DNA of 64,000 bases from Eledone cirrhosa (lineage: Eukaryota), in assembly GCA_964016885.1 (NCBI GenBank), contig OZ024740.1:344472001-344536000 (forward strand). The letters run 5' to 3'. Position numbers and translations under genes: made by a program. Below, in pieces: positions 18,048 to 62,701 of the stretch. The notes beneath the pieces are model-generated. The model was not told where the DNA came from. It made no database searches and saw only the letters and a list, made by a program, of their open reading frames with translations. How positions within the stretch are numbered: position 1 is the first letter of the stretch; every line of letters starts with the position of its first letter.

Positions 18048-18206
18048 TAGGAGAAAGTATGACCCCGACGGCAGAGATCAAGCCGCCGAAACCACTTGAG
18101 CTCTGCCATCGGGGTCATACTTTCTCCTATTACCCACTCTACTACCCTAAGTATTGAGTACTCTGGTGCGTTATGGTCCATCTGGTTCCTTACCACAACT
18201 CGTTCG

Positions 18207-18210
<4 letters not shown>
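18048..18210 (+). mobile_element. Mini fold-back element, family B copy 2
   Basis: Arms 18048-18082/18095-18129 with spacer CCGCCGAAACCA; tail to 18210; in (TA)n. Confidence 0.8.
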
Positions 18211-19486: not shown

Positions 19487-19548
<62 letters not shown>

Positions 19549-19550
<2 letters not shown>

Positions 19551-20067
19551 TTTCTGAATTTGATTAGCAAGATTCTTTATCTGAAAACGTGTGTTGAAAC
19601 GGATATTGTTATACTTTGGGAGGGTCATGTTGCCAATAAGAAACACACGCACCATTTGCTTTCACTTCAATTTATTATAAATTTCCGGTTGGTTGGTTGG
19701 TTCCACAACCGATGGTTGTTCATATATTGTCAAGGTTCTTTCGTCACACATTATGTGACCTCTTCAGTGACTGGGGATTATTTACTTTTGTTTTGAGCCT
19801 CTCCTTTGTTTTGTCCTACGCCATCTTGTTTTTGTGTGTGTTGTGTGCTTAGTTTGCGCATGTGTTACATCAGGGTGTCTGTTTTTATTTGTTTATTTAT
19901 TTGTTTATTTACATGTTAGTAGTTAGATGTAAATAAACAAATAAATAAACAAATAAAAACACACACAGACCCCCGGATGTAACACATGCGCAAACTAAGC
20001 ACACAACACACAAAAACAAGATGGCGTAGGACAGTTTCTTATTTTTAACATCACCCTCCCAAAGTAT

Positions 20068-20075
<8 letters not shown>
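19549..20075 (-). mobile_element. Non-autonomous PLE pLTR fragment with fold-back, family A copy 1
   Basis: Inverted arms 19812-19914/19927-20033 and 19603-19631/20047-20075. Hammerhead motif present. Flanked by (TA)n. Homologous to 21255-21595. Confidence 0.8.
19729..19771 (-). ncRNA. Minimal type I hammerhead motif (cleavage triplet mutated)
   Basis: Minus strand reads GTCA-CTGAAGA-G-GTCACA-TAATG-TGTGAC-GAAA-GAAC-CT-TGAC. Confidence 0.65.
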
Positions 20076-20159
<84 letters not shown>

Positions 20160-20419
20160 AATGAAGAAATTATTCAATATCAAAACGTAGAGATAGAGAT
20201 GACCAAAGTTCTAATTCAAAAGAATATGATAATAATTTAAGGTTACGCCAGCAATTTATATTGAAATGTTAAAAATAAAAATATACTGTATAGTTAGCCA
20301 GTTGAATGTAGATTGGTTTTCTATATCTAAGTTCTAAGTCCAAACATTTCACGCGGAAAAACATAATATTGATCGTTCCAGGTTCGATAGATATTAATAA
20401 ACAAATTGGGATATTTGGA

Positions 20420-20810
20420 TTTAATCAGGTGATGAAACTTGTCCTACAAACACGTTGTAGTTCCATGAGTGCTCCCTCTATACTTCCAAGGAAATATATC
20501 TATTTGCTAATTATTGTAACAAGGTTTAAAGCGAGATTCAGCAAATGTTTTCAATTTCCTAATGTAAATTCATCTCATATCACAAGCGTTATGAGGAATC
20601 TTACACAATAATAATCTTGAAATTTACTTCGACTCATACCTATGTATCTAAATCTTTATAATATTTTTTATTATATTCATGAAATACTTAGATATGAAAT
20701 TCTTAGATAGGAAAAATATGCCATAAATGTGTCAGCTCTCAAGTTATACGCTTAGGGTTGATTCATATGTCAGTGACTAGAACATTATATTCCTTGCGAA
20801 CATAAAGAGC
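20420..20810 (+). mobile_element. Possible highly decayed GIY-YIG (Poseidon-like PLE) fragment
   Basis: Scattered motifs FKARF..., SSHI, C(Q)L and PCEHK, in the order expected for the Poseidon endonuclease C-terminus. Confidence 0.3.
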
Positions 20811-21095
20811 CAGCACAGAAAAAGATAAATATATGTATCTACTGATTTATGGATTAGTAATAATCACTATATAGATTGATATCAGCTGACAACACGGCCG
20901 ATGCCCTATGTATTCAATCCGGCTTAATAAACTTATCTTTATCCATTTATATGCACTTTTTCGTACATCGTCGACGACTCATTTTTTATGAATCTTAGTT
21001 AGTAGAATTGGTGTTACATATTAAGTATTCTCACAGATCCACACACACACCAACACACACATGTACATACATACATACATACATACATACATACA

Positions 21096-21188
<93 letters not shown>

Positions 21189-21254
21189 ATATATGTGTGT
21201 GTGGATCTGTGAGAATACTTAAATATGTAACACCAATATATATATATATATATT

Positions 21255-21587
21255 TCGTTTCTGAATTTGTTTAGCAAGATTCTTTATCTGAAAACGTGTG
21301 TTGAAACCGATATTGTTATACTTTGGGAGGGTCGTGTTGCCAATAACAAACACACGCACCAATAGCTTTTACTTCAATTTATTATAAATTAAATTTATAA
21401 ATTTCTGAATTCATAAATTTCCGGTTAGTTGGTTGGTGCCACAACCAGACGATTGGTCATATATTGTCAAAGTTCTTTCGTCACACATTATGTCACCTCT
21501 TCAGTGACTGGAGATTCTTTTCTTTGTTTTTGTGCCTCTCCTTGTTCTGTCTTACGCCATCTTGTTTTTGTGTGTCTGCCAAAGTAT

Positions 21588-21595
<8 letters not shown>
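21255..21595 (-). mobile_element. Non-autonomous PLE pLTR fragment, family A copy 2
   Basis: Aligns to 19549-19840. Ends in CCAAAGTATAACAATAT like copy 1. Flanked by (TA)n. Confidence 0.8.
21466..21508 (-). ncRNA. Minimal type I hammerhead motif
   Basis: Minus strand reads GTCA-CTGAAGA-G-GTGACA-TAATG-TGTGAC-GAAA-G-AA-CTT-TGAC: CUU triplet, 4-bp stem I, one mismatch in stem II. Confidence 0.7.
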
Positions 21596-21627
<32 letters not shown>

Positions 21628-21629
21628 GA

Positions 21630-21790
21630 ATATATAGCTTTCACAGTATTTTTGACTAAAGAAATTTTAGCCTGATAATGGGGTTTAGAACCCTCAGATA
21701 AATGGAAAAAGATGGGTATTGACGTACATGGGAGTCGAACCCACATGTTTGGTTATCGGGACGACTGCGCTACCATTACACTAACACATA
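21630..21790 (-). mobile_element. tRNA-derived SINE (family S2)
   Basis: A box TAGTGTAATGG, B box GGTTCGACTCC. Body shared with 57105-57250. Confidence 0.75.
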
Positions 21791-22390
21791 TAGTCGTCCT
21801 AATGGTCATCTCTAATAGTTTTTAAATTCTCTTCGACATATTTTATTGTTGAAAAATACTGTAATTAAACAAGAACAACAACAATAATAATAATAATAAT
21901 AAATTAATAGAATATACGCTGAACTAGTTTGTAAAATGAAATATATATGTAAAGAAAAAGAAGGAAATATAATTTTATATACATCTAAATATTGCTAAAA
22001 CATTACAAAAAACAACTTTTTAAATAAAGATTAGAAACAGGTTGCTTAAATTGTTGTTGCAGCCAATGAAATTGATAAACGAGAGCCGTACTATGATATT
22101 TGGTTATTCAGCGAATATACGATTTAATATGATTCACGTGGAAGGATCATGGTTAATCATCAACAAGACAAAGATAAATAATGCAAAACTACAGCAGAAT
22201 AAGTAGCAGTATGTATGACTAGCTGTAACAAAAGATGCCTACTTAAATTGATATCCGCACATTCACAAACATGCAAATAAACATGACTATAATCACACAA
22301 ATTTATATATTTTTTATTTTAATTTGTGTGTGTGTAATGAATATTTAAACTAAAACACAGCTTATATTAGAAGGTTTAAAGAGAAAATAA

Positions 22391-22578
22391 TTGTTTCTAC
22401 ATTTGGCACAAGGCCAGCAATTACCCAGTGTATTACTGGTACTTTATTTTATCGCGCCCGTAAGGATGAAAGGCAAAGTTAACCTCGGCGGGATTTGAAC
22501 TCAGAATGGTAAGGGCCGTAACTCTATTCGTCAAAGCATGGCGTCCGACCCTCTACCGATACTGCCAATCCACCGCCC
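22391..22578 (-). mobile_element. tRNA-derived SINE (family S1) with 16-bp TSD
   Basis: A box TGGCAGTATCGG, B box GAGTTCAAATCC. TSD TTTAAAGAGAAAATAA at 22375-22390 and 22579-22594. Confidence 0.92.
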
Positions 22579-23426
22579 TTTAAAGAGAAAATAATAATAA
22601 TTTACCAGGTTTTCTATTAGAAACCTTCATTCTAATGAGAATAACATGTAAACACGTTTTATTACTGCTCTCTACACAGAAGAACTGAAGTGATTACGCT
22701 TTTGTATTTCTAAGATATTTTTTATTCACATCGTCATATATATATGTTTATGAATCTGTATACTAAGGAGTGGTACTATAGCAACGCCACAGATGTCAAG
22801 CAGGGTGTAGAATATAACCGCAATAGTCATTATAATTAGTATGAAGCCCATACCTTTAGCATTGTGATTGATTATGTAAAGAAACTATTTATGTTAGAAC
22901 AGAGATTATATTAGAGTATGTAAGTTGAATATAATGTAGAAAATTATAGTCATTTATTTAATTAGATGCCTTCGTTTTGAAAAGAATGTAATAAAAAAAA
23001 TCTCCTATATTTCTATATACATAGGAAAACATGAGATATTAACTTTACACATTTCGGTATTTTTTCTCTCTGCTGGATAAGACAACAAACCATATGATTC
23101 TCTATACAAAAGACGTTTGCGTTTATAATGCAAAATGTCCAAATTCGGCTATATTAACCATTTAATTACATATTAAAACAACGGTGTATTTCCTCGAATA
23201 CATCATACATGTAACAGAATTTTACTTGTAACACTGGTTTGTTTTTCATCTCTTTATTATACTGTATTTCTACTTTATTCATCTTTTTAATTGACACTAA
23301 TATTTCTTTCAGTTCCTTTCACAAAATCTTAAAAACAGAGTATAGAAATCACAGAAAAGTAATTATTTGTTCTGCACAAGGCATGGAATCATACTGTATA
23401 ATTTTAATTTTGATTTTAAACGCACT

Positions 23427-23601: not shown

Positions 23602-23997
23602 AATTGAGATAAGCGGAGCAAGCAAGATTCAAACAATTTTTTTAAATAAATTAAAAAATATAATTTAAATATTTACCTATTCCAATTGCTTTTACCGACG
23701 GTTTCACTTCACAAAAGATTGGAGATCCCTAGGGACTTCCAATGGAAAAGTTTAGATCATCAGAGAACATTTTCCTTTCCTATCGATCCTGTGCTAGATG
23801 GCAGATGGCAGATGTCCTAGGAAAGGAAAATGCTCTCTGATGATCTCTACTTTTCCATTGGAAGTCTCTAGGGATCTCCAATATTTTGTGAAGTGAAACC
23901 GTCGGTAAAAGCAATTGGAATAGGTAAATATTTAAATTATATTTTTTAATTTATTTAAAACATTTTTTGGAATCTAGCTTGCTTCGCTTATCTCAAT

Positions 23998-23998
<1 letters not shown>
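23602..23998. mobile_element. Fold-back PLE pLTR pair (~180-bp inverted arms), each arm with a hammerhead-like motif
   Basis: 23602-23782 is the reverse complement of 23818-23998. Right arm has CTGATGA 23837-23843, GAAA 23895-23898, ACCG-T-CGGT stem III and GUA 23905-23907. The whole unit (~23495-24000) lies between TA runs. Confidence 0.8.
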
Positions 23999-28982: not shown

Positions 28983-28986
<4 letters not shown>

Positions 28987-29044
28987 TATTGAGTACTTTG
29001 GTGCGTTATGGTCCATCTGGTTCCTTACCACATTTCCTTCGTTA
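28983..29044 (+). mobile_element. Family B tail-only fragment
   Basis: AAGTATTGAGTACTTTGGTGCGTTATGGTCCATCTGGTTCCTTACCAC is shared with the other copies; in (TA)n next to the large PLE. Confidence 0.8.
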
Positions 29045-29060
29045 TATATATATATATATA

Positions 29061-30500
29061 AGTAAAAAGGAAAAGATAATGCTGACAAATTTTTCCCAGT
29101 GAAAAATAGTTTAATTAGGAATGAGTATAAATTAGTAATAAGTATTGGTTAGTATTCAGTTTTGGTTTTAAGTTTTTGCCGGTTGTGTATTTCTAATGGT
29201 TTTCAAAAATAATTTTAAGATAGAGCGCTCGTGATGTTTGCTCTAATCTGGTCAGTTTTGGAAATTCTTCCTGTTTTATGTGAAAAAAGTGGCTCCAGAT
29301 GTATTAAGATTTGGTTGGTTGTTGAATGTCACGTGAATAAGTACTATAAATTTCGCGCCAATTCGTGTTGCAAAAATTCTTGTAGTCAAAACAATTTTGA
29401 TTGGTCGGTAGAGGTCACGTGAATGTTAAAAATTGATTTTAGCGCGAACTGGTTTGGCGCCAAATGTAGGTTTGTAGGAAGAGTGTCCTTTTTCGCTTGA
29501 GTTGCAGTCATGTTGAGAAGTCACTGAAAAACATATCTATTAAGACAAATATGTGTGTGGTGTGTGTGTGTGTGTAGTAAAGAGGTTCATTGTTGTGATA
29601 ATGGTCAGTAGGGATGTGTGTGTGAGTTGCAGTCATGTTGAAAGGTCAACAGTTCAGGTGTCTATTAAGACAAATATGTGTGTGTGTGTGTTTGTGAGTG
29701 TGTGTAGCAGAGTGGTTCGTGGTAGAGGGAATAAATCGGTCAGTAGGAATGTGAGTGTACGTGTGATGTGTGTGTGGTGGTGCATTTTAACATGTTGAAA
29801 CATATTGTTCAGCTCTTGTCTTATACGGAGAAGTGTGTGTGTGTGTGTGTGTGTGTGTCTGTTTGTGTGTGTTTGTGTGTGAGTGTGTGCATATCTGTTT
29901 GTATGTTAGTGTACACGTGTGTATGTGTGTGTGTATATGTGTGTGTGGATGGACCAGTATTTTTGTGATACTGGTAAAAATGGTGTACATTATTCGATAT
30001 TTTCAGTCATTTGCAAAAACGATTCTCTCAAAAGAACATCAAAAACATCAATAATAAATGAGGTGAAATGATGTATAGTACTGTCATAACACCAAGGTGT
30101 GTGTGAGTGTCCAGATTGTACGTACTGCAAGGAGAATTCATTAGGCCCTGCTGTAAGGGATACTTGTGTACACATATGTATGGGCCCATCAATGTGCAAT
30201 ACATGTGTGCGTATATGTATGTGTGTGTGTCGGCACGTTTATATATATAAACATCAAAATGTATGCAAATTTGTGTATATTTGTGTTGCACCATAGAACA
30301 TGTGTGTTTACGTATGTCATTGTGTTTATATGTGGATAGAAATGTATGTAGGATGTATGCTGATGTAGGTATGTATGTTGACGTGTGTATGTTGTGGGTT
30401 CGTCTTAGGGGGAAGTGTTTAGACGGGGTCCGTATTTGTTAATAAAGTGAGATTCCTTGCTGATGCGCTGGGTGTGGGTGGCATTATCTTTAAATTTGTA
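29061..30500 (-). repeat. Left (inverted) pseudo-LTR of the PLE, including the last ~30 codons of the endonuclease
   Basis: Reverse complement of 33996-35447, with substitutions and microsatellite length differences. Confidence 0.95.
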
Positions 30501-30593
30501 ATATGTCATTATCTTTAAATTTGTAATATATCACAACTCCTGTGTCACACCTCTATTTTTTTAAATATCATATCCCCACACGAGATACAGAAA

Positions 30594-31947
30594 ATGCCAA
30601 CAAAAACAGATACAACTCTTATCAACACAAATGAAGAGATTCTACAGGAACTCAAGAAAATTAACACCAACCTATCTGTGCTAGTCGACAAACTTGACTC
30701 CACAAATGAGGAAACCGTTACCGGATACAAACCCTCCGAAATCGGCGATAAACTTCAAAACCTTTGCGATACTATCCAAACTATGTTCACTATTACCAAC
30801 CCAGGAAAAACCAACGAAGAACCATGTGAGATTGATTCATACAAAATGAAAATTCGAAAAATCCCAAAATGGAACAAACCCCTCAGAGACAGAAAGTTCT
30901 CCTTTTGGAAGATGATACAAAATCACAACAAAGCGGAGATATATTAAAAATGGCTTAACTCAACCCCCTCTAACTCTCCCCCGTAAAATACAAATAAGGT
31001 CCATTCCAAATGAACCCGAGCCTCAAAGACACCTTAGGAAAAGAATGGCATTGGAAAAAATGAAGACAGAAATTGAACTTCTTAAATTGAGGGCCCAGAC
31101 AAATGAGGAAAAAATCAAAACCATCAATGAAGAAATCCTCCTTGAAATCAACAATAAGACTGAAGGCCCTAACGTAAAGAAGATCTCTAAATTATGGAAA
31201 GAGGACTGCAACAGAGAAGAGCTGAAATCCCTTCAACGCTGGGAAAAAAGTGCCGCTTGGTTCCTAAACTATGAATCGACTTTTCAAACGGATTACACCT
31301 CCAATAACCCGTTCATAAAAATAGGAAAACCCATAACCCAACCGCACAACAACTTCGCAAACTCCCCAGCTACTAACAAAAGAAGAAGGAAGCACCACAC
31401 CGAAGATGAACTTCCGAACCTCGCTTACATAAGAAGGAACAAAAACCCTATAAATCATCACCCCCAGAATGACATTTACAACTTTCCCCCTTCAAGGAAA
31501 TACCATACCAAATCACTCAACTACTACGCGGATGCCTCATCGTCAAACATAGGGAAAAGATACCACCACCATGATAGATGTAACAACTTCCTCGCTACAA
31601 GGGGACATCAAGGTAATTTCCATTTTCTCAACTCTCGCTTCCACAATACACAACAAACCCACACCGCACGATACAGCCAACAACGTAGGCCACCTATAAC
31701 ACCACAATCCAACATGGCACATAGAAACACACATCCATACTCGCAATATAGGAACACCCCATTCAATACACAACCACGAACCCGAACCACATTTTACAAC
31801 AACAAGGAATATAACAAACACAGGAGACCACTTAACATCAGCAGACAACCCCTCTACCCCAACCATTTTTTAGACACAGAACACAGATACAGGCAAACAA
31901 GACGGGAAGGAGAAACCGAGAGTAATAAAAATTATCAATCTAACTAG
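30594..31947 (+). pseudogene. PLE ORF1-like region (helical/coiled-coil N-part, basic low-complexity C-part), disrupted by a stop and frameshift near 30945-31020
   Basis: ORFs 30594-30947 and 31045-31947 are joined by a disrupted linker (KWLNSTP..LPRKIQIRSIPNEPEPQRHLRKRM). Heptad-like L/I/E/K spacing. Same A/C-rich strand bias as ORF2. Confidence 0.7.
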
Positions 31948-34091
31948 TGCAGAACCAACTCCCATCCTTATCAACTTACTCTCCAAATGTCTTAAATTCA
32001 CACCGACCCCCCTACGTCCTAACTACTATGAAATGAAGGAAGACATCACAGACTTCTGTAGAAAGTTACGACTCAGTGAAGAAATATTCGACCAGTACAA
32101 TGAGGATGAATCATTAGCCAGAAATAAAGGCAACTACACCCCATCACATCAAAAGGTAGAAATAAAATCCTGGACGAATTCTGTGAACACATCACAAACT
32201 TCCCTTACCAACACTTGCACAGACAAAAATACAAGCCAAACCTCAACAAGAAAGAATGGGAAGAATTAAATAGATTAAAAACCGACAGAACTATTACAAT
32301 TAAAGAGGCTGATAAAGGGAGTGCAGTAGTCCTAATGGAGACAGAATTCTATATCAACTTAGCACTCTCCACTTTGGAAAATGAAACATACTACGAAAAG
32401 GCTGAACACTACAATCAACAGAAAATTATAAGAAGCCTAAAAACTCTGATCAACCAATACAAAGAAGGACTCACTAACAAGGAATTCAGCTTCATCACAG
32501 ACTTCACAAGTAAATCCAACCTTTTCTACGGTATCCCTACAGTACATAAAAGCGAATTAATAAGTAAGGCATGCAAGGAAGCCACAGACATAATCATCAA
32601 TGTCCCCTCACCCAATGATCTCAAATTAAGACCTATAATAGCAGGCCCCGCTTGCGAAACCCACCGCCATAGCAACTTCATTGATACCCTTCTCAAGCCT
32701 TTTCTCAAATACATCAAAAGCTATATAAGGGACGACCTAGATATGCTCAATCACCTCCCTGATATACCGCTTACTGAACAAACCCTACTAGTGATGTTCG
32801 ATGTAGTCAACCTATACTCCAACATCCCCACAACCTAGGAATAGAAGCTATCCAATTCTGGCTGGATGAACTCCCACAACGCATCAAAAAAGAATTCGTG
32901 ATAGAAGGACTCAAATTTATCTTGGAAAACAATTACTTCCTTTTCAATAACAAATCCTAGAGGCAGAAATCTGGGAGGGCTATGGGAACGAAAACGGCCC
33001 CCACTTATGCCAACCTAGTCATGGGATACCTGGAAATCATCCTCTACACTAAAGTAGTAAACACATTTGGAAACACTCTCCACTTACACATAGAGAAGAA
33101 CTAGAAGCGATATCTGGATGACTGCTTCATCCTTTGGCACGAAAACATCGAGAAACTTAAAGAATTTCACACCCTTATAAATGGGATCAACACGAATATT
33201 AACTTTACTATGGAATACAGCCATCAACAACTCCCCTTCCTCGACATCCTCATTAAGATTCATGACAAAAAAATAAAAACAGACATATAATACAAGCCCA
33301 CAGACTCCAAGCAATATCTTCCTATCAATTATTGCCACCCTAGACACGTTAAAATTAATATTCCCTACAACTTAGCCAAGAGAATCTGTACTATAGTCTC
33401 CAATAAAAACACCTGTTACTTATGTCTACAAGAACTAAAGGACACACTCATAAGCAGGGACTACCCTGCATCACTAATTAACAATGGAATCCAACGTGCC
33501 CTAAAACTCAGTACCCAGGACCTTAGACACCATCCTCCAGAACATCCCTGTATTAAAAAAGGACCATAGAATGAACCAAATCCTTCGAACACACGATATC
33601 ATAAAGAGCAAAAGACAATCTAAGTCAATGAAAAACATCCTAACACATGCCAAAGTACTGCTAACCACAACAACGGAACCCACAGTAAAAAAATCGATAG
33701 ACCCAACTGTGGCATATGCATCAACCTAATAGAGGGTTCGGAATTCTATTTCAAAGAAGGACAACGTTTTATAGTAAAACTCAATTTCACATGCGCATCA
33801 AAAAATCTAATATATGTATTAATTTCCTCAAGTTGTCAAGAACAATACATAGGCCAGACTAAAAACAGCCTCCGCCAACGCATGACTGTCCATAGATCCC
33901 AAATTAAAATACGGGAATACAGAAAAATACCACTGAGTGAACACATTGATACGTGTGCCGCCCAAAATCCTCCCAACTTTAGAATCTTTCCCCTCTACAA
34001 ATTTAAAGATAAAGCAACCCACACCCAGCGCATCAGCAAGGAATCTCACTTTATTAACAAATACGGACCCCGTCTAAACACTTCTCCCTAA
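31874..34091 (+). pseudogene. PLE reverse transcriptase + Cys linker + GIY-YIG endonuclease, with several frameshifts and in-frame stops
   Basis: Motifs in order: IINLT..LLSKCLKFTPTP; IKEADKGSAVVLM; LRPIIAG; FDVVNLYSNIP; GRAMGTKTAPTYANL; RYLDDCF (YLDD 33111-33122); LPFLDILI; DRPNCGIC; NLIYVL..SCQEQYIGQT..LRQRMTVH..LSEH..KESHFI..PRLN. Confidence 0.93.
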
Positions 34092-34901
34092 GACGAACCC
34101 ACAACATACACACGTCAACATACATACCTACATCAGCATACATCCTACATACATTTCTATCCACATATAAACACAATGACATACGTAAACACACATGTCC
34201 TATGGTGCAACACAAATATACACAAATTTGCATACATTTTGATGTTTATAGATATAAACGTGCCGACACACACACATACACATACGCACACATGTATTGC
34301 ACATTGATGGGCACATACATATTTGTACACAAGTATCCCATACGGCATGGCCTAATTGATTCCCTTTGCAGTACGTACAATCTGGACACTCACACACCTT
34401 CGTGTTATGACAATACTATACATCATTTCACCCCTTTTATTATTGATGTTTTTCATGTTCTTTTGAGAGGATCGTTTTTGCAAATGACTGAAAATATCGA
34501 ATAATGTACACCATTTTTACCTGTATCACAAAAATACTGGTCCATCCACACACATATACACAGACATATACACACACACATACACACACACATACACACG
34601 CGTACCCTAACATACAAACATACATACACACACACACAGACACACTTCTCCGTATAAGACAAGAGCTGAAAAATATGTTTCAACATGTTAAAATATCACC
34701 CCCCCACACACACACACACCACGTACACACACATTCCTACTGACCGATTCATTCCCTCTACCACGAACCACTCAGGTACACACACACACACACACACACA
34801 CATATTTGTCTTAATAGACACTTGAAATGTTGACCTTTCAACATGAGTGCAACTCACACAAAAATCCCTACTGACCATTATCACAACAATGAACCTCTTT
34901 A

Positions 34902-34963
<62 letters not shown>

Positions 34964-35447
34964 TTGTCTTAATAGATATGTTTTTCAGTGACTTCTCAAC
35001 ATGACTGCAACTCAATCAAGCGAAAAAGGACACTCTTCGACAAACCTACATTTGGCGCCAAACCAGTTCGCGCTAAAATCAATTTTTAACATTCACGAGA
35101 CCTCTACCGACCAATCAAAATTGTTTTGACTACAGGAATTTTTGCAACACGAATTGTCGCGAAATTTATAGTACTTAATCACGTGACATTCAACAACCAA
35201 CCAAATTTTAATACCTCTGGAGCCACTTTTTTCACATAAAAACAGGAAGAATTTCCAAAACTGATTAGATAGAGCAAACATCACGGGCGCTCAAGATTAT
35301 TTTTGAAAAGCATTAGAAATGCGCAACCGGTAAAAACTTAAAACTAAAACTGAATACTAATCAATACTTATTACTAATTATTACTTATTCCTAATTAAAA
35401 TATTTTTAACTGGGAAAAATTTGTCAGATTTTCTTTTCCTTTTTACT
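33996..35447 (+). repeat. Right pseudo-LTR of the PLE
   Basis: Matches the left arm in inverted orientation; followed by a ~45 bp tail. Confidence 0.95.
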
Positions 35448-36080
35448 AATATATCACAAATCGTGTGTGACGCCTCTATTTTTTAAAAATATATATATAT
35501 GGGTGTGTGGGGCGGGGCGCGGGTGTTTGTGTGTGTCTGTGTCTTTGTGTGTGTGTGTATTTGTTTGTACCTGTGCACGAGTGTATGTGTTTGTATGTGT
35601 ATGTGCTTGAATAGAGAGTGAAAAGAAGAGGAGGAGAGGCAGCAAACATGTATGAGTGTTTATTTGTGTTTGTATGTTAGGGTACATTTGTTTTTAAATA
35701 TAGAATGTCTAAGTTAACGGACGCTGTTTTACATCTGTACATCATATTTTAGTACGAAATATTAAGAGGAAGCCGACAAACATCATTTAAGTTCCTGTCG
35801 TATCAGTGCCTAGCAGCTTTAGTTTAGTCAGTAGGCCGATTTCTTTCTGACGTGATATATAAGAGCTTTCAAAGACTTGGGAACATGGCCACATAGAGTG
35901 CAAGAGTTATGGTTGCGAGACAAGATAGCTGGTACTCGTGTGGTTTTTTTCAGTCCTCACTCTTGTTGTAGACGGCTAGATTCGAAAGATTTAATGTCAC
36001 TGTAATAGATCACTCTCCACTTCTTTCGTTCTAGAAACACCTGCTCAAAGATCTTAAAGGGTATGTTAACACACACACAA

Positions 36081-49177: not shown

Positions 49178-49558
49178 GGCGGTGCATTGGCAGTATCGAT
49201 AGAGGGTCGGACGCCATGCTTTGAAGCATAGAGTTACGGCCCCCGCCATTCTAAGTTCAAATCCCGCCGAGGTTAACTTTGCCTTTCATCTTTACGGAGT
49301 CGACAAAATAAATACCAGTAATGCACGGCGATAATTGCTGGCCTTGTGCCAAAAGTAGAAACAATTATTTTTGATTGGCAGAATCAATAGAACGTCGGAC
49401 ACCAAGCTTTGCGGCATAGAGCTACAGTCCCTTACGAACTGAGTTCAAATCCCGCCGAGGTTAACGTTGCCTTTAATCCTTACGGGGTCGATAAGATAAA
49501 GTACCAGTAATGCACTGGTTAATTGCTGGCCTTGTGCCAAATGTAGAAACAATTATTC
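49178..49558 (+). mobile_element. Two tandem S1 SINEs (49178-49369, 49373-49558)
   Basis: Both carry GTTCAAATCCCGCCGAGGTTAAC..GCCTTT and the GGCCTTGTGCCAAA.GTAGAAACAATTATT end. Confidence 0.92.
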
Positions 49559-51602: not shown

Positions 51603-51858
51603 TGCATCCCTTAGCTACTGTACTGTATCTGTTGCTATCTCTCTCTCTCTCTCTCTCCAGCTATCCCTCTTTTTTAGTCTGTCTGTTTCTCTCACTCTAA
51701 CTCTTTCTCTTTGTAACTCACTAACATTCCTCCCCTCTATCGCTGTGACAAATGGGGAGATGGAGGAGGGGAAAGAGGAGGAGGAGAGAGTCACTTCGTC
51801 ACTTCACCTCTGCCTTTCTTTCTCTCCCCTCTCACTCCCTCATTACGTACAGACATTA

Positions 51859-52051
51859 GGGCGGTGGATTGGCAGAATCTGTAGAGAGTCGGACACCATG
51901 CTTCATATCATGGAGTTACGTCCCTTTACGGTCTGAGTTCAAATACCGCCGAGGTTAACTTTGCCTTTCATCCTCACGGGGTCGATAAAATAAAGTACCA
52001 GTAATGTACTGGGTATTAGCTGGCCTTGTGCCAAAAGTAGAAACAATTATT
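51859..52051 (+). mobile_element. S1 SINE
   Basis: Full-length match to the other copies. Confidence 0.9.
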
Positions 52052-52203
52052 AGAAACATTGCTTCATTTTTACATATCTAAGCATTAGTAAAATAACTAA
52101 TAATTTCAAAAGTAATTTTTCAATTCCAATTGTTATGAACAGCAAAACATTAATAATAATTTTGTTCTAAGAAATATATATACATTTCTGTGTGTGTAAT
52201 ATT

Positions 52204-52234
<31 letters not shown>

Positions 52235-53399
52235 ACACACAGAAATATATGGGCATTTCTCTGTTTGTCTGTCTGTCTGTCCCTAAAACTCAAATGTAGG
52301 TGCTACAGAAATATTACCTTCCCCTTCTTTTCTCCACTTTGGTACTACGAAGAGAAACACTGTCGCTATAGAAACATTCCCTTCCCCTCTCCACTGACTT
52401 TGGTCACTGAGGTCGAGGGAATCGGTGGTTGCTATAGGGACACCTTGCACGAGCGAGAAGTAACCAGTTCGAAGCGGTTCTGACCTGACACCATGCCAAG
52501 GACCATTTGAAGAAGGTTGCCATTGAATTTGTGGTTGTTGCTGCTGATAATAAGGACCATTCGAAGAAGGTTGCTGCTGAATAGGTAATTTATTAATCAG
52601 ATTGCGCAGTTCCATAACCTCAGTCTGGAGCTGCGGGATTTGATTAATACGTTTGATTTGTTCAATTTCTCATCCAAATCTCAACAATATCAGTATATAC
52701 ACTAGATTTGCTAGCAGAAAACCGCCCACCGGGTGGTTTTCTGCTAGTCTATATCTATAAAAATGAAAATGTCTGTCTGTGTGTGTGTGTGTGTGTGTGT
52801 CTGATCCACAGCAACTGTTGATCCGCAAGGCCAATTTTCAATATTTCTTTTGTAATCAACCACAAATTTATCAGGACAGGCCGCCACGACATTGCGAATG
52901 ATCGACTCCCCCTTTATCCAGGTAAAATATCGATAAAACTCACTATAGATACGACATTGCACAGAAAAAATCTCTATATCTATAAAAATGAAAAAGAAAG
53001 AGTGAGAGTGAAAGAAACAGACAGACTAAAAGAGGGGGATAGCGGGAGAGAGAGAGAGAGATATATATAGAGAGAGAGCAACAGACGCTGTGTTTGATAC
53101 ATGGCAGTGGAAGAGGGGAAGGAAAGCTATAACTAATTAACATGTGTGCGTGTGTGTGTGCGTGAGCGCGCGTGTGTGTGTCTGTGCAGCGTTCCAGTAA
53201 GAGGTAAATCTATTAAGCGATGATAATACGTCGTTATGTGGACCGAGAAGAACAATTTCATGCAAAGACAAGGCCAAGTTTATGGTGTATATGGAGTCGT
53301 TAGACTAATATTCTATTTAAAATAACCGAATGATTTCCAGCCCCGGAGTTTAAGAATGATGTAAATAAAATTTAAACGAAAATGACAGAGGTTATTAAA

Positions 53400-53510
53400 A
53401 TAGTTGTTTCTACTTTTGGCACAAGGCCAGCAATTACGCAGTACATTACTGGTACTTCATTTTATCGACCCCGTAAGGATGAAAGGCAAAGATAACCTCG
53501 ACGGGATTTT
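53400..53510 (-). mobile_element. 5'-truncated S1 SINE
   Basis: 3' half only. Confidence 0.85.
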
Positions 53511-54055
53511 AACTTTGCCTTAAAATAGTAAAAGTAAATAGTGAAGATTTAGGCCAGTACATACGTATGCGCCGACGGACATACACATACATATATAGAC
53601 GCACACACACACACACACACACACGCTCGTGCGTGTATGTGTAAACCTTATGCATTTCTACAGTATTTTCACCAAACTTAAGACACAGGTTACTTATGTA
53701 CTCCGGATGGTCATGGGCACTTTTATTTTTCCAGATATTGATTATAGGGCATCCCGGCAGATAACACCCTTTAACCGGTTTCTTGGAAGCAGTGCAATGC
53801 AACAAAACGTCATAACTTGTGGAGTTCGCAACCGATTTCACAAAACTTAACACATGAGCTACGTTTGTTCTACATATGAATGTGAACTCTCACAATTGGC
53901 ACATATTGTGTAGGGGACTCCTGGTGGCAGGAACCCCCTTTTGGAAAAAACAGATGATTTTGTATAAATATAGTTTTCGAAGCAGCACTGAAGTATTGAC
54001 ATAAATGGTATACATAACTGCTATTTAAAACCCGAGCAACGCCGGGTACCTCTGC

Positions 54056-60046: not shown

Positions 60047-60236
60047 TGGATTGGCAGTATCGGTAGGGGATCGGACGCCATGCTTTCCGACATAGAGTTA
60101 CGTCTCATCACGATCTGAGTTCAAATCCTGCCGAGGTAAACTTTGCCTTTCATCCTTACGGGGTCGATAAAATAAAGTACCAGTAATGCACTGGATAATT
60201 GCTGGCCTTGTGCCAAATGTAGAAACAATTATTATT
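60047..60236 (+). mobile_element. S1 SINE
   Basis: Near full-length match to the other copies. Confidence 0.9.
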
Positions 60237-61498: not shown

Positions 61499-62027
61499 AA
61501 CGGCCTGTTTTTCTTTCTTTCTCTTCTCTCTCGCTCTCTCAAAATATATTATATCACTCAATCTATTTAACTGCAGCTGCATTTGGCTTCGTCCTGTCAG
61601 TCAAGACATCTGCTCGTGATATGCAATGATAACATCCTTTTCTGAAATGATAGTCTCAGTGCCCAACCACATGCAGGTAAGTACGCTGTATTTTCCCCCT
61701 AAAGCTGGAGATTTGAGAGTGGTGAGGAGCCGAGAGCCGAGAGCCGAGAGCTGAGCACTGAGAGCTGAAAGAAGCCTTGCTCTATTCAGACAAGGACCAG
61801 CATCTTCCACAGCCCCCCCACACACACACACACAACACGCACTAACAGCATTACACAAAACCAACCCCATTTGTCCACACCAGCTACACCAGTACAACAA
61901 ACACCACGGCAAGCTTCAACCACCATCACCACCACAACGAAAATTACTAGATCTCTTGCAAGTGAAGGAGTCTTTACTTGATAAAAATAGCAGCATTATT
62001 ATTTAGAAATCATTATTATTTCAAATC

Positions 62028-62214
62028 GGTGGATTGGCAGTATCGGTAGAGGGTCGGACGCCATGCTTTGACGTATAGAGTTACGGCGCTTGCCATTCTG
62101 AATTCAAATCCCACCGAGGTTAACTTTGCCTTTCATCCTTACGGGGTCGATAAAATAAAGTACCAGTAATGCACTGGGTAATTGCTAGCCTTGTGCCAAA
62201 CGTAGAAACAATTG
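62028..62214 (+). mobile_element. S1 SINE with 12-bp TSD
   Basis: TSD TTATTTCAAATC at 62016-62027 and 62215-62226. Confidence 0.92.
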
Positions 62215-62701
62215 TTATTTCAAATCACATCTCTATTTTAGAACGAAAAAGACACGTTAGACTGTCGTTGTCATAAATATGTTCAAAAGATGGGATAGTC
62301 ACACCAGGAAAGCATTAAATCATATGGCTGTTCGGTCAGAGTTGACATGGAACTAAAGAACCAGAACAACGACAGCACCAACATCATTAATACCAACACT
62401 ACTACCACTAACTGAAGCATCACTACTACCATCCCTACAGTACCATCAGATATCATACGAGAAGGCCTCAATGTGAACACTTGATCTGCTAGACTATCAT
62501 ACAAATCTTGCTCTAATCACACCCTACCATCTTAAAAATAACACGGTGGGTAACATGGAAAGCCTTAGAACAGAGGTCTGTTCAATCAGGATTTACTTGG
62601 GCAAAATAATAACACCATTACCAACATTATCAACACCTCTAGCATTAACACCATCACAAACACAATAGCCACAATGAAAACATTACTATCACCACCACTA
62701 T

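Follow-up and report, generated by a model that had tools for sequence, protein, structure and literature searches.

How is the Pol protein of an endonuclease-bearing (EN+) Penelope-like element (PLE) produced when Pol alone has no start codon, and how does such an element come to lie head-to-head with an inverted copy of its own 3' end? Both questions are raised by a locus at 29061-35489 of a 64,000-nt stretch of the Eledone cirrhosa genome (GenBank assembly GCA_964016885.1, contig OZ024740.1, positions 344,472,001 to 344,536,000, forward strand; hereafter the window, to which coordinates refer unless another copy is named). The copy in the window is a dead and decayed member of a high-copy family of Neptune type. 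Taken as a whole, the locus is probably the remnant of a PLE whose intact copies would express the reverse transcriptase (RT)-endonuclease as a minor fusion, made by -1 ribosomal frameshifting from an upstream open reading frame (ORF1) into Pol, and whose layout would stem from twin priming. An earlier note on this DNA had described the inverted arms and the tail, but mentioned neither ORF1 (30594-31947) nor the two-ORF structure with its conserved slippery heptamer. Published work is cited by accession; the sources were available in part, and statements on them refer to those parts.

Overlapping reading frames and the slippery heptamer

The 3.0-Gb genome was searched with a 236-aa RT piece, which yielded 8320 candidates, of which 150 were scored; apart from the window itself, all scored copies are 92-94% identical to the RT query. 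The 60 best-ranked of the 149 other scored copies were analysed, and the sample therefore leans to young copies. An open Pol frame of 784 codons is found at the same place in 22 of these 60 copies (median distance 0.38%). In intact copies, a 436-aa ORF1 beginning with ATG overlaps Pol, which lies in the -1 frame, by 70 nt, and both ORFs are full length in six of the 60. The overlap contains an in-phase U_UUU_UUA (T_TTT_TTA in the DNA), a heptamer of the X_XXY_YYZ type with an open -1 frame, as required of a -1 frameshift site, which is intact in 49 of the 51 copies covering it. Pol has its first Met only at residue 70, beyond the conserved IINL..GLKF stretch.

Three further two-ORF PLE families (B, C and D, the family of the window being A) were recovered from the genome by searches with two database proteins (L091-L107), with ORF1/Pol frames of 409/775 aa and 427/777 aa in addition to the degraded family D. 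These families have the same overlap, with the first Pol Met at 163, 20 and 60-61. An ORF1 profile match was also obtained in 15 of 79 metagenomic loci, of which 14 cover the junction. Two overlapping ORFs are thus present in the four host families and the 14 evaluable metagenomic loci, in place of the single ORF with which EN+ PLEs are described in PMC8557442, PMC11167929, PMC4209133 and PMC6515669. The exact in-phase TTTTTTA occurs in 15 of these 18 ORF1-bearing elements, against a chance expectation from codon use of ~4%, and none of the seven Phe-Leu pairs inside three Pol frames has the heptamer.

The position of the site is also reflected in the protein databases. The set of ORF1 homologues comprised 151 proteins (the best 150 of 619 matched clusters and one further protein), of which 79 have at least 330 aa. 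Phe-Leu is found in the last 50 aa of 66 of these 79, as compared with 7.1 +/- 2.5 (maximum 17) in shuffles, 6/79 in each of two other segments of the proteins and 3/79 for Leu-Phe. The ORF1 stop lies exactly 10 codons past Phe-Leu in 24 of the 66 and closer in one. Three Mytilus gene models (P0008, P0025 and P0027) join ORF1-like sequence to a PLE RT, extending the linkage to bivalves, and P0025 and P0027 between them represent both readings of the site.

These comparisons make it likely, at the level of sequence, that Pol is produced by a -1 ribosomal frameshift at U_UUU_UUA. Most ribosomes would stop after ORF1 and thereby provide an RNA-packaging protein, while the few that slip would provide Pol. 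The gag-pol -1 frameshift of human immunodeficiency virus 1 (HIV-1) uses U_UUU_UUA. The present arrangement shares with it the heptamer, the phase and the order of structural gene followed by enzyme, whereas a long terminal repeat (LTR), protease, integrase and conserved downstream stem-loop are absent here.

Several observations weigh against frameshifting. The heptamer is a variant in three of the 18 elements (TTTTCTA, TTTTTTG and TTTCTTA), and the elements are related rather than independent, so that binomial values for the heptamer overstate its significance. No conserved RNA structure was found 3' of the heptamer (z < -2.5 at two of the 13 sites); the site of the family itself is unstructured, and a simple pseudoknot search did not rise above shuffles, long-range and protein stimulators being outside this test. 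A G follows each of the 15 exact heptamers (C in one family-D copy), which makes them readable as a splice acceptor as well. Codon 20 of Pol encodes Met in family C, seven database Pol proteins start with Met 9-12 residues before the INL motif, and Pol may be initiated independently in some families.

Three other routes to Pol have to be weighed against the frameshift. Were TTTTTTAG a 3' splice acceptor, a spliced RNA lacking most of ORF1 would encode Pol; the G after the exact heptamers, an acceptor-like site (TTTTCTACAG) at one variant heptamer and the possibility of introns in PLEs (PMC8557442) would fit, but this is very unlikely, since splicing needs no fixed ORF1 phase for the T-run and yet Phe-Leu is in frame in 66/79 homologues. 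Furthermore, the residue after Phe-Leu cannot begin with G in 19 of the 66, so that no AG follows there, no in-frame GT of ORF1 fits the GTRAG donor consensus (7, 7 and 6 sites in A, B and C; best GTATAA), and none of the 33 insertions mapped has a forward start at the AG. Reads, available in four of five runs as contigs of unknown kind, gave three low-depth joints, none of them at the heptamer, which says nothing on splicing. Separate translation of Pol, whether by termination-reinitiation or by internal initiation from an AUG or near-cognate codon close to where ORF1 stops, also appears quite unlikely. One homologous place in the -1 frame does hold ATG in family C and several database Pols, Val (GTG) in B and an ATA overlapping the ORF1 stop in A and D; such initiation nevertheless leaves unexplained the exact in-phase heptamer kept 30-60 nt upstream, in eight of 14 relatives the stretch from the heptamer to the GLKF motif is free of Met, and the ORF1 stop of B and C does not overlap the candidate start codon. 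That the ORF1 C-terminus keeps Phe-Leu as a protein motif, with the two ORFs otherwise independent, is highly improbable: most homologues do have His, Ser, Arg or Pro before the pair and Gly, Glu or Asp after it, but a protein motif would permit any Phe and Leu codons, whereas 15/18 use TTT TTA preceded by T.

A ribosome queued behind another sits ~10 codons back, and on a more speculative view the stimulator would be not a pseudoknot but a ribosome paused at the ORF1 stop, one ribosome length beyond the heptamer. Queuing of ribosomes at stops has been reported in bacteria (PMC7544508), no spacing being found in the part of that paper available, and two metagenomic elements in which the stop lies one codon past Phe-Leu fit the idea poorly. 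The wider picture, namely a widespread subgroup of EN+ PLEs with a gag-pol-like strategy, an all-helical ORF1 family and a structure-free -1 slip by ribosomes queued at the ORF1 stop, is offered only as a tentative and rather doubtful proposal. If true, a conserved ORF1/-1 frameshift subgroup would alter protein prediction and biochemical expression of EN+ PLEs, because Pol alone has no start codon, and would add a large unannotated protein family as well as a natural test case for structure-free frameshifting.

The first 256 aa of ORF1 match 619 clusters (50% identity) at E 0.001 or better, and none of the best 150 of these is longer than 541 aa. The predicted fold of this N-terminal domain consists of six helices (predicted local distance difference test score, 88), while the remaining 181 aa are of low complexity, rich in Asn, Arg, Pro and His, with 31 basic and eight acidic residues. 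To judge from its position and composition, ORF1 may serve in RNA packaging. No Pfam family was matched by ORF1, a Foldseek comparison of its model with PDB and viral models gave nothing at E 0.001, and the best VIA-align result (Z 8.8, root-mean-square deviation 6.5, 124 aligned) was among generic helical bundles; the dimer prediction scored 0.02. In a quick tree of 58 Pol rows (midpoint root, 40 of 83 loci dropped, relatives without clade names), all 17 ORF1-bearing rows fall within one branch of 39 rows (Shimodaira-Hasegawa approximate likelihood-ratio support, 100). None of the 16 loci outside the branch has an ORF1 match, and many distant Pol loci carry long Met-bearing N-terminal extensions instead of ORF1. 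Within the branch most other rows lack upstream DNA, and three loci (L125, L126 and L128) are also without an ORF1 match. A test of the ORF1-presence label on the tree gave 13 changes as against 14.9 in shuffles (83/500 as low), and is uninformative in that the label 'no' mixes true absence with missing upstream DNA and that the dropped loci do not enter it.

Two-ORF PLEs have already been depicted in a published figure legend, and are presumably the Athena/Terminon elements. In that legend (Fig. 1 of PMC8557442, and the preprint), ORF1 is separated by a frameshift with a pseudoknot and the clade is unnamed; a coiled-coil-type ORF1 upstream of a PLE RT and the frameshift joint are shared with the present family. 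Two-ORF PLEs lack an endonuclease according to PMC6431247, whereas an endonuclease is present here and no conserved pseudoknot was found. The killifish Neptune element repeat.CL27 (PMC12602865) likewise has an extra upstream ORF of unknown kind, but its two ORFs, of 420 and 2004 nt, do not overlap and the word frameshift is absent from the part of the paper available. Esterases are mentioned in Neptune-like PLEs in PMC5408684, and the available parts of PMC13282606, bioRxiv 10.64898/2026.07.22.740005 and PMC5718144 hold nothing further on the ORF layout of EN+ PLEs. The literature search found no description of ribosomal frameshifting in an EN+ PLE, although there is some real, if lesser, chance that one exists. 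The two-ORF slippery junction is likely a new variant among EN+ PLEs.

Domains of Pol and affiliation with Neptune

Pol contains RVT_1 (Pfam, E 4.2e-7) together with GxKF and DKG, the N-terminal motifs of PLE RTs (PMC8557442), and GLKF and DKG are invariant in the alignment of relatives, the named ones being from Octopus sinensis and Mytilus. The GIY-YIG domain (PF01541) is matched at aa 61-151 of the frame 33624-34091 (E 1.4e-7), and intact copies have C-x2-C inside the GIY-YIG core followed by two His (CCHH), as in EN+ PLEs. The linker between RT and endonuclease carries C-x4-C-x2-C in intact copies, is conserved among relatives and agrees with the CX2-5CxxC of Neptune. The Cys-rich linker from which the earlier note had argued for Neptune is whole in intact relatives and broken in the window copy, whose first linker Cys was lost by an indel. 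A Cys linker with a C-terminal endonuclease fits Neptune or Nematis (PMC8557442). The spacer from CxxC to the Cys before GIY is 24 aa in intact copies, and in Fig. S2 of the same paper, judged by eye and not a stated criterion there, Neptune rows have ~23-27 aa and Nematis rows fewer than 10. Naiad was excluded, as its endonuclease lies at the N-terminus. RVT_1, GIY-YIG, linker Cys and spacer agree in supporting the earlier assignment to endonuclease-bearing PLEs of Neptune type, a group which is paraphyletic according to PMC8557442.

The family thus shares with published Neptune elements (PMC8557442) an RT with a C-terminal GIY-YIG bearing two core Cys, the CX2-5CxxC linker, the long spacer, partial tandems, an inverted 5' copy, a one-sided tail and microsatellite targets. 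It differs in having two ORFs with a slippery heptamer rather than a single ORF, a 1.35-kb microsatellite-rich 3' untranslated region (UTR) and no hammerhead recovered by a strict scan. No Rfam hammerhead match was obtained in the element (all 15 Rfam rows were below gathering scores), and the strict minimal-core scan of five units, which would miss variant cores (PMC4209133), found none. No relative of Pol with a solved structure was found by sequence.

Inverted arms, tail and TA targets

The self-BLAST of the window gave one long inverted match, 29054-30500 versus 35454-33996, and in the local alignment of the arms 1342 bases match and 74 mismatch, with gaps in 74 columns (94.8% over aligned bases). 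The inner end of the right arm, 33996, falls within the GIY-YIG coding stretch. This bears out the earlier description of the left arm as an inverted copy of the 3' end starting inside GIY-YIG. The tail, too, is on the right end only, where 35448 to ~35489 aligns with the element's start, while the left arm ends at the short terminus; its length in the family is ~41 nt rather than the 45 first given. The coding region shows 5.4% substitutions and seven indels against an intact natural copy. The features are as follows.

29043-29060, no strand: left (TA)n target remnant (sequence)
29061-30500, minus: inverted copy of the element's 3' part, truncated on its 5' side (last stretch of GIY-YIG plus 3' UTR), outer end at the short terminus
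30482-30533, no strand: 25-bp tandem duplication spanning the head-to-head inner junction (24-nt gap in the junction mapping)
30525-30568, plus: unit start, sequence shared with the tail
30594-31947, plus: ORF1, broken by a 1-nt insertion and a 10-nt deletion
31866-31872, plus: in-phase slippery heptamer T_TTT_TTA, candidate -1 frameshift site
31866-34091, plus: Pol with RT, Cys linker and, at the C-terminus, GIY-YIG; interrupted by stops and five more indels, one of them an 80-nt deletion
33804-34076, plus: GIY-YIG endonuclease domain (Pfam)
33996-35447, plus: right arm (pseudo-LTR, pLTR, region), end of Pol and ~1.35-kb 3' UTR with CA microsatellites
35448-35489, plus: ~41-nt tail, at this end only
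35490-35500, no strand: right (TA)n target remnant, five units (sequence)

The unit of the family is ~4.8 kb long and is arranged in partial tandems, with inverted 5'-truncated copies or in both ways (60 copies), which agrees with the partial tandems or inverted pLTRs and optional 30-40 bp tail of PLEs. The free ends map precisely to two positions separated by 41 nt. At 81 of 86 classified ends at least 70% of the next 20 nt are TA/AT dinucleotides, and the remaining five begin ATAT, a count to be read against the commonness of TA arrays here (90 in the window). The pLTR/tail layout and (TA)n target recur in the collected copies and their tabulated flanks, as the earlier note had anticipated. 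Families B, C and D likewise end in (TA)n, family B having a tail of ~60 nt and family C one of 37 nt. The inverted pLTR, tail and TA target are an already known PLE layout, inverted pLTRs and tails being documented in PMC3846280. By its 3' UTR the window copy falls into an older subfamily, of which 29 members are 1.4-6.6% from their own column majority. Between subfamilies the 3' UTR (window 34090-35447 versus L031-L090) is ~67-82% identical in most copies and the ORFs 91-95%, which suggests fast turnover or exchange of 3' UTRs between subfamilies. The pLTR end and tail of one copy (L067, 4100-4241) reached ~30-400 times the summed contig depth of the element body in two runs, an excess that may represent many short end-only insertions or adjoining TA repeats.

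The origin of the inverted arm can be read from how the ends are combined. Among two-ended insertions, 30 of 31 pair one short with one tailed end (21 short-left/tail-right and nine tail-left/short-right). In 31 of 33 insertions, more than 100 nt of the unit separates the inner limit of the inverted arm from the point where the forward copy begins, and the overlap at the inner junction is 0-6 bp in 21 of the 33. The tail is present solely on the inverted arm in seven copies (L041, L051, L052, L071, L072, L082 and L089), and fold-back could not have supplied it from a forward copy that lacks it. The fold-back or template switching of one cDNA to which the earlier note had attributed the arms is for these reasons unlikely, pure fold-back being largely refuted. 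Such an origin would suit the identity of 95-99.8% between the arms of young copies (six copies), the descent of both window arms from one subfamily and the self-priming inferred from junction palindromes in PMC3846280; it does not account for both outer ends being precise 3' termini in (TA)n, nor for the unrelated inner ends and the tails on the inverted arm alone.

As inner ends are unrelated and tails may be confined to the inverted arm, two primings are the better reading, and the head-to-head layout probably arose from two separately primed cDNAs, i.e., by twin priming. Both strands of a (TA)n tract would be nicked by the endonuclease, and the 3' ends so exposed would each act as primer for reverse transcription, beginning at one of two internal sites on RNA of a tandem array; the two cDNAs would then meet at unrelated truncation points and join via 0-6 bp of microhomology. 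The single two-ended insertion of the 31 with two short ends speaks against this scheme. Poseidon_Ac of Anolis (PMC11167929) nicks and extends both strands in vitro and starts at two internal sites, which is why twin priming fits it. That element shares two reverse-transcription start sites that define the tail and AT-rich targets with the present family, but has a single ORF, no Cys linker and a hammerhead, and short/tailed pairing was not counted in the part of the paper available. The literature search found no PLE-focused paper that uses the term 'twin priming'.

The single insertion event proposed earlier fits both window arms, which show 48 versus 40 private changes, six shared changes and eight in variable columns. 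The arms belong to the same subfamily and agree at most subfamily-linked sites, which is what a single old event would leave. These sites do not establish an origin from two templates, the few that differ doing so in both directions and most being shared. The 30/31 pairing amounts to a genomic rule for which every model of PLE integration, a process treated as open in the literature available, must account, and the young subfamily, with its open Pol frames, makes both the frameshift and the pairing rule testable.

Small TA modules and other repeats in the window

The suggestion of the earlier note that this family or its relatives could drive the small TA-flanked modules of the window finds no sequence support, as the modules share no terminal sequence with families A-D (best E 0.013). 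Derivation of the modules from these families was rejected for want of homology, and trans-mobilisation without shared sequence may be considered. A TA-flanked head-to-head module at 19529-21636 (19529-19839 inverted versus 21236-21575, inner palindrome 19812-20033) has a minimal-hammerhead-like core on the minus strand and is not homologous to families A-D; from its sequence it is likely the end of another PLE family. A ~60-bp module lies between TA arrays at 2172-2289, 18050-18207 and 28985-29042, is twice joined to a ~60-80-bp hairpin and recurs in many genomic loci, once directly beside a family-A end (L080). A palindrome of 397 bp (90%) at 23602-23998 ends at a TA array. No tRNA gene was called in the window. 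A dispersed repeat of ~190 bp that resembles a short interspersed nuclear element is present at 22384-22579, 49178-49557, 51857-52052, 53395-53514, 60047-60236 and 62027-62219, once as a tandem pair.

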